A stretch of DNA of 56,515 bases, taken from NCBI GenBank assembly GCA_000934665.2, contig KZ538171.1:62001-118515 (forward strand), given 5' to 3'. Both the position numbers and the translations under genes were made by a program. Positions within the stretch are counted from its first letter, which is position 1; the number at the start of each line of letters is the position of its first letter. The DNA comes from Catajapyx aquilonaris (lineage: Eukaryota). Positions 44,601-47,474 of this stretch are shown in pieces. The notes below the pieces were generated by a model. That model searched no databases. It was not told where the DNA came from and was given only the letters and a program-made list of their open reading frames with translations.

Positions 44601-46431
44601 CACACAAACACATGTTGACACATATCCAGAGTATATTTGCATCCCCCAGTGATGACATTGTTTACTATCATAAGTGATAACTTTATTGTGCCCTTCCTTT
44701 ACCACTTTGACGCAGTTTATCTCAGATCAATGGGTTCAATAGTTTTATAGCTTTGCCATGACCATCAGCAATAATAGTGCATATCGGAGCCAGATTTTTA
44801 TGTATCTGCTGACTCAAGAAGTAAGTGCTTCGAGCTTATTCATGCATATGGCTTGCCATTTAGGAGACAGATTTGGCATTTCCTTGTCCCAACTTGCAAA
44901 CACATAAATTGAGGGATGGGGTGGATATACATGATAACCCACAAAAGTGTAATTTTTCAGGAGAGCGAATTGCAGTTTGCACTCTCTTCACAAATCATAG
45001 GGAATGTGGGTTTTGATTTGATCTAGTCTGTGTTGCTCTCTCGTGCATGATACATGAACTTTGAGCATACCAAACTGTTTGTCATGTCTTTTACAAAGGT
45101 ACTATGTACTAGGTGTTCAGGTCAAAAATGACTTATCATGTTTTTCCACCACACCCCTCAATTGATGGCAGTTGATTTTCAATGATATTCTACTGCTCAT
45201 CAGGTGCCTTGCAGTCTAAGGCAAAGAGATTGGATACTAACAGGTGGATTAATTATCATTGCAGGTGAGATTACAGCTCTGGGATACTGCCGGGCAGGAG
45301 CGATTCCGCAGCTTAATTCCATCATATATCCGGGATTCCACAGTAGCTGTAGTCGTGTATGACATTACCAGTGAGTGCCTGACTTGTTGCACCAATTACT
45401 GAACTCTTGGGTAAACTAACATGTCATGATTTCAGATGCGAACTCATTCCATCAAACTTCAAAGTGGATTGATGATGTGCGGACAGAGCGTGGCAGTGAT
45501 GTGATCATCATGCTGGTAGGAAACAAGACAGACCTCTCGGACAAGCGGCAGGTGTCTACGGAAGAAGGAGAGAGGAAGGCTAAGGAGTTAAACGTCATGT
45601 TTATTGAGACCAGTGCGAAGGCTGGTTACAACGTGAAGCAGGTACATTCCATTGGTTTTCACCTTCTCAACAATTCTTCAGAGAATTTGACTGGACCTTT
45701 TTTGGGGGGAAAAGCTCTTTAGGCGTGTGGCAGCAGCCCTTCCAGGCATGGACTCCACTGAGAATAAGCCTCCTGAGGACAGTATCCTTTCAGTAGATGT
45801 TTCAGGTGGTGTGCATGTGTTTTCGACTATCTTTGCCTGTCAGCATAACCTTCTACCTTTCTACCAATTTCCTTTCCAGGGGCAGGTTCTTGTGGAAGCT
45901 CCACATGTCAGTTTTACATTTCTATGTTGTACTCCTTGTAGTTAGAATTGCACTGGTGAGGGGTTTTATGGACTCAACTTGAGTACTGTCCTGGAACATT
46001 TTTGAATGGCTACAGACAGGAAAGTAGCCAATACTGATGGTCAAAATTCTTCTTTCTTATTAACTACCACTTTAGTACCTATCTGATTCTGTGACATGCA
46101 CATATTTTGCTAATTTTTTTGCATTGGCATACTGGCATTGAGAGGTCACCTGAGAGATTTTATGACATTAAAATATAAATCAATATAGCATGCCGCTTGT
46201 TCTACTCTGATATGTGCAGGATAGGCCATAAACATGACATTTCTATTACTTCCTTTTGCCAATGAATGCCTCTTGTTTAGGTGCCACCTGGAAGCATGCA
46301 CTTACTACACAAAATAGGCAACTTCTTATGTTTTGTTATTTTCTTTCCTTAACATGCTTTTAGTGCAAGAAGTGATATTGAAAGACACTCCAGCCGAACC
46401 TAGAGATAAAGAAGGGGGCTGTGCATGTTAA
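32683..46431 (+). CDS. RAB6: Ras-related protein Rab6, 209 aa (terminal exon A isoform)
   Basis: Exons 32683-32752 ([23 protein letters not shown]), 39221-39279 ([20 protein letters not shown]), 41826-41879 ([18 protein letters not shown]), 45265-45370 ([25 protein letters not shown]), 45436-45641 (VGNKTD...ETSAK), 45715-45781 ([22 protein letters not shown]), 46364-46431 ([22 protein letters not shown]). Total 630 nt, phases consistent. Confidence 0.97.
34332..35040. mobile_element. Tc1/mariner-superfamily foldback element with transposase C-terminal remnant, in Rab6 intron 1
   Basis: TA|CAGGGTGGGACAAAAGTCATGGG ... CCCATGACTTTTGCCCCACCCTG; roughly 300-bp inverted arms; centre (~34688-34750) translates [20 protein letters not shown], and arms encode ...[35 protein letters not shown], typical of Tc1/Tc3-like DDD/E transposase C-termini. 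Confidence 0.9.
44911..45159. mobile_element. Non-autonomous DNA transposon, Sola-like (copy 2, inverted relative to 5870-6124)
   Basis: Ends GAGGGATGGGGTGGATATACATGATAACCC / TTATCATGTTTTTCCACCACACCCCTC; TSD AATT both sides; interior (cataccaaactgtttgtcatgtcttttac, ctaggtgttcaggtcaaaaatgac) is the reverse complement of copy 1. Confidence 0.8.
45782..46363 (+). other. U12-type (minor spliceosome) GT-AG intron, last intron of Rab6
   Basis: Donor GTATCCTTT at 45782-45790; branch site TTCCTTAAC at 46345-46353, 10 nt before the exon; both match the U12 consensus. Confidence 0.93.
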
Positions 46432-47403
46432 TCCCAGGGAGACCACTGAAGGAACCCAGTTTGGCAAGTTTATGCATGTCAAGCAGAGAGCAGCTTTCCA
46501 ATGGGCTTGATGTTTAGATGGCAGTCATGTTGAGGACAGTTCAAGTGATGCCCCCAAGAGACCAACAAGTATTGCCCTGGGTGTGGGAAGGGAGGGATAA
46601 GATGTGTTGCTCGCATATCATCGATTTGCTGCACCAAGCGTAGAGTTTTTTTTGGTTTTGAATGTTTATTTTTGTCAGAAGGTGTGATACACATGGTTTC
46701 TTTTATTGTAAATATTATGGTTTTTGTGTCGTATATTTGATTTGTACAGTCACTCACGAGTTTTATTATTATTATCATTTTTATTTCTCATTCTGTTTCT
46801 TGTACTTCTGAAATCTATCTTATAATATTTTGATAGCAGCTTATGTGATTCCTTCCATTCACAGTGAGATTTCTACCAGATGAATTTGAACTATTTTGAA
46901 TGACCACCTGTTACATTAGCACATAATTATCTAAAGACTGTCGTGGCGAAATTTGTGGTTATATTTTGTCTATTGCCATATCTGCGTAAGCTGTTACAAA
47001 AAACACAATCTATAGTGTCTCTGTGGATCTTGTAGTACCAAGATATTTTACAGATTACCAATAAAGTATACTATTTGCAGATGACCATAGGATACTAACA
47101 GCATAAATTTTTGATACCATGAACATTTTTTAAAGCTACTTCTTTCACTTGAGCAACTTTTACATAAAAAGCTTCCATTGCAAATCAGGTGGTGGTTGTA
47201 GTTCCACAATTTAACATGTGATCCTGAAACTTGCCAATGGTTGGGGCTAACCAATATTAACAAAAACTTTTTGAAATAATTTTTTAAATGACATTTTGCA
47301 GCTGAGCACCCTGTTGTTTACTAATAATGATACCCTTTTTCCCAGTAATTCCCAGCCTGATGGGCAAAAGTAGGCACGTATTTTTCCTTAACCCATTCTG
47401 CAG

Positions 47404-47474
47404 CTGTCGACCTGCAAACTCAGCCCCCTCAGCAGAATGAAAAGTCTGATGAGGAGGGTGGATGCATGTGCTAG
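47404..47474 (+). CDS. RAB6: Alternative terminal coding exon B of Rab6 (TVDLQTQPPQQNEKSDEEGGCMC*)
   Basis: U12 branch site TTCCTTAAC at 47384-47392, CAG acceptor 47401-47403, correct phase 1, ends in GGCMC prenylation motif and TAG; AATAAA at 48161. Confidence 0.88.

Follow-up and report, generated by a model that had tools for sequence, protein, structure and literature searches.

One U12-type donor and two terminal exons: a probable tail switch in the last intron of a Catajapyx aquilonaris Rab6 gene

The forward strand of a 56,515-nt stretch of the Catajapyx aquilonaris genome (GenBank assembly GCA_000934665.2, contig KZ538171.1, positions 62,001 to 118,515; hereafter the window, in whose numbering all positions are given) carries what is, judged by alignment to known proteins, a Rab6 gene of insect type. 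Our subject is the last intron of this gene, together with the two short exons – A and B – in which its coding sequence can end. We consider it probable (about 0.8) that this intron belongs to the U12 type, that its single donor is joined to either a proximal or a distal acceptor, each furnished with a branch site of its own, and that the choice between them is made by competition between these branch sites. A preliminary description, drawn from the DNA letters alone, had placed the donor at 45782, the two exons at 46364 and 47404 (both in the appropriate phase), their branch sites, and AATAAA hexamers at 47060 and 48161; every one of these elements lies where it was said to lie.

The Rab6 gene and its two alternative ends

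The layout of the gene came firstly from alignment to the Periplaneta Rab6 protein P0123, to which all the coding exons align by tblastn, at approximately 32683, 39217, 41826, 45265, 45436 and 45715. The Pfam Ras domain is recognised in exons 4 and 5, and many proteins named Rab6, from insects, crustaceans and molluscs, match the translation of exon 5 with 100% identity. Exon 6, the last exon common to all products, contributes 22 residues and the first base of a split codon. Assembled contigs from a sequencing run described below place the joints between the later exons. The coding features are as follows.

32683..32751, + strand: Rab6 first coding exon; start codon at 32683, 3′ boundary approximate; tblastn to P0123 residues 1-23, 96% identity
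39217..39279, + strand: Rab6 coding exon 2; boundaries approximate; tblastn to P0123 residues 23-45
41826..41878, + strand: Rab6 coding exon 3; boundaries approximate; tblastn to P0123 residues 44-62
45264..45370, + strand: Rab6 coding exon 4; contig record 3; joint 45370>45436, GT..AG; Pfam Ras PF00071, E 2.6e-12
45436..45641, + strand: Rab6 coding exon 5 (68 residues, P0001); translation; Pfam Ras, E 3e-20; joints on both sides
45715..45781, + strand: Rab6 coding exon 6, the last common exon; ends in phase 1; contig record 3 stops at 45781, at a fork of the assembly graph
46364..46431, + strand: terminal exon A, coding part; tail A of 21 residues, split codon completed as M, CAC end, stop TAA
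47404..47474, + strand: terminal exon B, coding part; tail B VDLQTQPPQQNEKSDEEGGCMC, split codon completed as T, CMC end, stop TAG

Both terminal exons are in the phase 1 that exon 6 demands, and each closes with GGC-x-C followed directly by its stop codon. By composition tail A is charged and tail B rich in Gln and Pro, while the CXC motif is kept in both. The CXC motif of Rab proteins is doubly geranylgeranylated. Since both tails retain it, the switch alters the hypervariable targeting region and the 3′ untranslated region (UTR) and leaves the lipid anchor unchanged.

How the two exons came about is less clear. The preliminary description had proposed that a terminal exon was duplicated along with its branch site; the regions of exons A and B share 50 of 120 aligned columns, and a duplication origin, plausible as it is, would need more identity than that to be established.

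The same description had set the arrangement apart from the vertebrate RAB6A/RAB6A′ pair, and here it was borne out. Eight Rab6 proteins served as tblastn queries against the window, and among the matches listed (three queries) each internal coding exon was found once, with no second copy of any. As a separate observation, in Colias P0009 and P0010 and in a set of 238-residue fish models a segment of 30 residues, ..TEEG..NVKQ, is tandemly duplicated, as would happen if a gene model had taken up both members of an alternative internal exon pair; in the window it occurs once.

Splice signals, RNA-like contigs and 3′ ends

A critical issue is the class of the last intron. Both strands of the window were scanned for splice-signal motifs, the counts being set beside expected numbers and 100 shuffles, and the signals at the last intron are these.

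45782..45790, + strand: U12-type 5′ splice site GTATCCTTT of the GT-AG subtype, directly after exon 6, in the context A/GTATCCTTT
46345..46353, + strand: U12 branch site TTCCTTAAC of the proximal acceptor; 11 nt from its second A to the last base of the intron
47384..47392, + strand: U12 branch site TTCCTTAAC of the distal acceptor; 12 nt from its second A to the last base of the intron

The consensus of the U12 5′ splice site is /RTATCCTT, and the donor agrees with this highly conserved sequence. As a bare motif RTATCCTT is not enriched beyond chance, with seven occurrences in the window against 3.49 expected and at least seven in 5 of the 100 shuffles; the donor carries weight because it stands at the end of an exon and in the right phase, not because of the motif count. 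The branch site is rarer: exact copies of TTCCTTAAC number three in the window on both strands, against an expectation of 0.53, and three were reached in 2 of 100 shuffles. Two of the three precede the two acceptors, and both match the conserved TCCTTAAC-like class sequence. The third copy, at 18419-18427 on the minus strand, has no minus-strand RTATCCTT at a plausible distance.

The spacing points the same way. U12 introns are defined through their 5′ splice site and branch site, and the distance from branch site to 3′ splice site is best at 11-13 nt, according to passages of the Turunen review (PMC3584512); the 11 nt before exon A and the 12 nt before exon B both fall within this short optimum. 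Gaps of 11-12 nt leave no room for a polypyrimidine tract, yet the flanks are T-rich in what is an AT-rich intron. From the donor at 45782 to the acceptor at 46364 the intron measures 582 nt, and to the acceptor at 47404 it measures 1622 nt. Between 45790 and 47404 no further RTATCCTT is present on the + strand, and with no second U12 donor there, U12 splicing from exon A to exon B is impossible: the two exons are alternatives for the one donor. A looping out of exon A by long-range pairing was also considered. The inverted repeats are weak, the best relevant one being 14 nt long and 86% complementary, between 45797-45810 at the start of the U12 intron and 46903-46916 in the 3′UTR of exon A; we take it as chance and set the idea aside.

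Evidence that both acceptors are used came from the only public run that contains this DNA (X1), whose library type is unrecorded and which enters here as assembled contigs placed on the stretch 45000-48500. These contigs behave as the transcriptome of the same organism. They differ from the window by 0 letters, and an 872-nt contig links exons 4, 5 and 6 across two GT..AG introns, with joints 45370>45436 and 45641>45715 (the latter given as 45639>45713, cut +2) and with the upstream introns skipped; at 45264 this contig, record 3, has a loose end whose letters are those of the end of exon 3. At the end of exon 6 the graph forks. One contig, at a depth of 13.3, holds the joint 45781>46364; another, at a depth of 14.9, holds 45781>47404. 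The second of these was the joint on whose presence the preliminary description had staked its proposal – one U12 donor, two acceptors with branch sites of their own, and a swap of the Rab6 tail – and with both joints in RNA-like contigs, and tails and signals conserved, the proposal is supported. Contig cover is zero in the four bins that span 45819-46286, within the U12 intron. From another source altogether comes P0109, an independent spliced protein in which exon 6 is joined to a B-type tail.

The 3′ ends are a different matter, and here the preliminary description needs revision. It had coupled the splice choice to alternative polyadenylation, with the hexamer at 47060 closing messages that end in exon A and the hexamer at 48161 closing those that end in exon B. 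The contigs point to the following two untranslated regions.

46432..47083, + strand: 3′UTR after tail A to a possible proximal poly(A) site; AATAAA at 47060-47065; candidate site
47475..49505, + strand: 3′UTR after tail B; distal end inferred at about 49505; AATAAA at 49485-49490

In the 3′ region AATAAA occurs at 47060 and 48161, and also at 48716 and 49485. Contig record 6, of 2102 nt, starts at 47404, passes the hexamer at 48161 and is traced to 48500; if it is colinear with the window, the distal 3′ end probably lies at about 49505, 15 nt past the AATAAA at 49485. The hexamer at 48161 is thus read through and does not mark the end assigned to it.

Were proximal cleavage itself the switch, exon B would be spliced only in those transcripts that escape the poly(A) site after exon A. 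The AATAAA at 47060 does sit between exons A and B, and contig record 4, which covers 46364-47083, stops 18 nt past this hexamer, as would a fork produced by poly(A) tails; this stop hints, weakly, at occasional use of the proximal site. In two near-identical relatives' contigs, moreover (L016 and L017, below), the two exons are some 5.5 kb apart, which makes a very long shared 3′UTR less attractive. Against this, contig record 5 runs unbroken over 47060-47433, from the end of the exon A 3′UTR across the acceptor of exon B, at a depth of 12, little below the 13.3 found for the contig of exon A, and no poly(A)-tailed loose end at 47083 is among those listed. Given that 45819-46286 in the intron is uncovered, RNA spliced to exon A appears to pass the site, and exon A messages are best read as continuing through exon B, there untranslated. 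From 47404 onwards record 6 has a depth of 27, roughly the sum 12 + 14.9. The unbroken contig suggests that splice choice and alternative polyadenylation need not be coupled, and we regard cleavage as the switch as unlikely.

Conservation of the tails and of their splice signals

Exon 5 drew 4830 protein matches, and the 120 listed among them were sorted by their ends: 58 carry A-type tails, nine carry B-type tails, six end in ..DSIL as though the donor had been read through, and the other 47 match none of the three, a good many of them being gene predictions truncated at exon 5 or beyond it. A search directed at the tails added 14 proteins, five of B type and nine of A type. Among named taxa, tail B occurs in Anopheles (a 206-member cluster), Colias, Acromyrmex, Pseudoatta, Polistes, Zootermopsis, Rhamnusium and the shrimp Penaeus japonicus, which places the tail in five insect orders and in decapods; decapods have both tail types. 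Colias has one model for each tail, and Zootermopsis and Polistes are annotated with multiple isoforms. Both Rab6 tail isoforms are, in other words, already present in the databases as automatic models.

The genomic side was approached by scanning metagenome contigs with exon 5, which gave 80 loci (the genomic loci L042, L073 and L076 were left out of the dissection). In six of the six genomic loci with an insect-type exon 6 – L012, L015, L016, L017, L021 and L025 – the donor reads A/GTATCCTTT. L012, L016 and L017 are near-identical, so that the six loci represent about four lineages. L016 and L017 have exon A behind TTCCTTAAT and, some 5.5 kb further on, exon B behind CCCTTAAC; L021 has exon A behind GCCTTGAC and exon B behind TCCTTAAC, its contig ending within exon B; L015 has exon A behind TTCCTTAAT; and the contigs of L012 and L025 end before any tail exon. 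At the tail exons of L015, L016, L017 and L021 the branch-site variants show 0-1 changes, and their distances to the 3′ splice site are 12-19 nt. Conservation of exon B in relatives, whose absence the preliminary description had named as telling against it, is seen as B-type tails in insect and decapod proteins and as the exon itself in L016, L017 and L021.

These comparisons bear on another explanation, namely that use of exon B is splicing noise, the neutral by-product of a minor spliceosome prone to error at 3′ sites, and that tail B has no function. Published work lends this some backing: whether the use of alternative 3′ splice sites at U12 introns is regulated or erroneous is left unclear in the relevant passage of the Turunen review (PMC3584512), and most alternative events across minor introns lead to premature stops, according to the sections of Olthof 2019 (PMC6717393) that treat them. 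The pattern of substitution in tail B is nonetheless that of a coding sequence under constraint. Between the window and L016, 22 codons compare as eight identical, 10 with synonymous differences only and four with a changed residue; between the window and L021, 15 codons compare as one identical, nine synonymous-only and five residue-changing. For tail A, over 21 codons, the corresponding counts are 5-7 synonymous-only and 7-8 residue-changing differences. On these codon comparisons tail B is under purifying selection. An intact frame in the right phase, a CXC end, recurrence in five insect orders and in decapods, and a joint depth like that of tail A all speak against noise, which we consider very improbable.

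Variation at the start of tail B deserves mention in its own right. Isoforms P0107, P0128, P0121 and P0098 differ there by a single residue – ..ED-IAVDLQ versus ..ED-TVDLQ in Zootermopsis and Polistes – and in decapods the start reads IDLRP versus TVDLRP. Such one-residue differences fit a 3-nt wobble of the distal U12 acceptor, where L016 reads ..cctgTAGCAGTT at about 13230. The X1 contigs hold one distal joint only in the window.

Read-through of the donor may be a second source of variant ends. The ending ..DSIL followed by a codon that begins with T is the translation of A/GTATCCTTT. Besides insect-like contigs, four fish models (P0015, P0016, P0029 and P0044) have this ending; its presence in the fish suggests that a U12 donor at this position may be common to vertebrate Rab6 genes. 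In P0118, a Logan cDNA contig from another species, a fully spliced Rab6 reads through the U12 donor as ..PPEDSIL.. and ends 22 residues later in ..SCFC, a CXC end. This may be a third, unspliced tail, or chance; the window's own read-through frame has no CXC end.

Molluscs extend the comparison further. Isoform X2 of Babylonia areolata (P0138) and the mollusc-like cDNA loci L020 and L026 have ends of the NIELKP.. type that resemble the B tails of decapods; a search seeded with L020 for further B-like mollusc tails returned six matches, of which one (P0138) was relevant, and other gastropod models have A-type tails. If the resemblance of such short tails reflects homology, these data and locus L037 (below) suggest that the two-tail layout may predate the arthropods and may not be tied to U12 signals.

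Proposed branch-site choice within the minor spliceosome

Several observations weigh against a switch of the kind we propose, and they are best considered together. Each alternative joint is a single contig with a shorter side of only 30 letters, from one run of unrecorded library type. An overlap of 30 letters is what a k=31 graph is expected to give at a true fork. The contig of exons 4 to 6 has a depth of 17.9, well under the 28.2 that the two joints sum to, from which it follows that contig depths are not a sound measure. L037, from an unknown taxon, has a donor that looks U2-type (A/GTATGT) and, at L037:2449-3125, two candidate CXC tails about 450 nt apart, whose acceptors lie behind long polypyrimidine tracts with no branch-site motif; a two-tail arrangement may, on this evidence, not need U12 signals. 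L055 has a U12-like donor and only one tail in the roughly 6 kb downstream, and L051 and L052 have U2-type donors and one tail each. The dependence on the minor spliceosome is read from sequence only. Finally, nothing here is evidence that tails A and B differ in function.

The first of these points also feeds a further alternative, in which there is one true U12 event, and either the distal acceptor is spliced by the U2 machinery or the contigs are assembly chimeras or retrocopies. The sequence before 47404 is fairly pyrimidine-rich, as a U2 acceptor would have it. But a U12 5′ splice site combined with a U2-type 3′ end cannot be properly spliced, as reported in Chang 2007 (PMC1874599), and an exact U12 branch site, at a distance of 12 nt, stands before the distal acceptor. 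Chimeras and retrocopies are opposed by the agreement of the contigs with the window, letter for letter, with all four introns in view removed, and by P0109, which joins exon 6 to tail B independently. We find this alternative exceedingly improbable.

The mechanism that we favour remains competition between two U12 branch sites for one donor. A preformed U11/U12 di-snRNP (small nuclear ribonucleoprotein) binds donor and branch site cooperatively, as set out in part of the Turunen review (PMC3584512). In the Rab6 transcript the donor-bound di-snRNP would select one of the two competing branch sites. Messages with exon A would mostly continue through exon B, there part of the 3′UTR, to a common distal poly(A) site at about 49505, the AATAAA at 47060 offering at most an optional early exit after exon A. 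The A:B ratio would be set by the competition between branch sites rather than by obligatory alternative polyadenylation. The slowness of minor splicing may possibly help, by allowing time for the distal site to be transcribed.

Known systems provide several partial precedents. Within the same family, vertebrate RAB6A and RAB6A′ reportedly arise (the account is that of Echard et al. 2000) from internal mutually exclusive exons that change three residues of the GTPase core and leave the tail constant. There, as here, one gene yields two Rab6 proteins by alternative splicing, and the RAB6A/A′ exons are duplicated; unlike that case, the present gene leaves its core untouched and exchanges hypervariable tail and 3′UTR at the last intron. 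Other small GTPases exchange tails at introns of the major spliceosome: in KRAS and CDC42 such swaps change the type of anchor, be it lipid or charge. These two are the closest to our case in working, each swapping a C-terminal hypervariable region through alternative last coding exons (KRAS4A and KRAS4B, PMC9882654, and CDC42); the Rab6 gene differs in that both its tails keep the CXC motif for double prenylation and in that its intron is U12-type.

Among U12 events the Rab6 case is nearest to JNK and prospero, and differs from both in that its two alternatives are each U12-U12. Like exons 6a/6b of JNK (MAPK8-10; passages of PMC1874599 and PMC3584512), it involves conserved, protein-productive alternative splicing at a U12 donor, which in JNK is tissue-regulated; unlike JNK, whose choice depends on a hybrid intron in which U12 and U2 sites are incompatible, the Rab6 gene has two complete U12 pairs that share one donor. 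The Drosophila prospero twintron (parts of PMC3584512 and PMC3291851) is likewise alternative splicing at an insect U12 intron that yields two isoforms and is conserved among insects; there the U2 and U12 spliceosomes compete for overlapping introns, whereas here any competition would be confined to the minor spliceosome, the rival branch sites standing about 1 kb apart. One U12 donor with more than one 3′ site is also found in WDFY1 mutants (PMC1874599) and in the event category CAT7 of PMC6717393. Those sites are mostly close together, weak, mutation-induced or productive of premature stops; the Rab6 acceptors have consensus branch sites, lead to full-length proteins and are conserved between orders.

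The case is of interest given how such splicing has been viewed. Alternative splicing at U12 introns is described as almost entirely absent in the pertinent passage of PMC3584512; the later survey of Olthof 2019 (PMC6717393) finds more U12 alternative events, most of them with premature stops. In full-text searches we came across no paper connecting Rab6 with U12-type or minor introns and none in which these tails are described, although supplementary tables or intron databases may list the intron. The main texts of the insect U12 survey PMC3291851 ('rab', 0 occurrences) and of Olthof 2019 (PMC6717393) make no mention of Rab6. Rab6 would offer a clean natural case of productive choice inside the minor spliceosome, giving two full-length prenylatable proteins in several insect orders, with the tails in decapods too; its switch would also supply a simple two-band read-out of branch-site choice by the di-snRNP and of the effect that the speed and level of minor splicing have on an isoform ratio. 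A prediction follows: most arthropods should have two pools of Rab6, alike in anchor and different in hypervariable region and 3′UTR, that work with a single isoform does not see.

A broader conjecture can be raised, albeit as a doubtful one: that the tail switch is ancient and pre-arthropod, that in arthropods it is decided wholly within the minor spliceosome, between two competing branch sites, and that Rab6 targeting and 3′UTR thereby serve as a direct read-out, put to physiological use, of the activity or speed of that machinery. A pre-arthropod age is suggested because a gastropod model and a locus with a U2-type donor carry B-like second tails. Were the conjecture correct, the retention of U12 introns at this position, in vertebrates as in insects, would have a tangible explanation in regulation.

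The remaining observations concern the window at large. An Rfam search of it gave 0 matches at gathering scores. Just past the inferred 3′ end of Rab6, at 49988-50374 on the + strand, an open frame encodes a repeated RRD-x-WG-x-TTV-x-EE followed by a proline-rich stretch; this frame is without a Pfam match. Further on, at about 52090-52220, a run of N (an assembly gap) lies between G-rich and C-rich flanks and appears as runs of X in the translations of the open reading frames.

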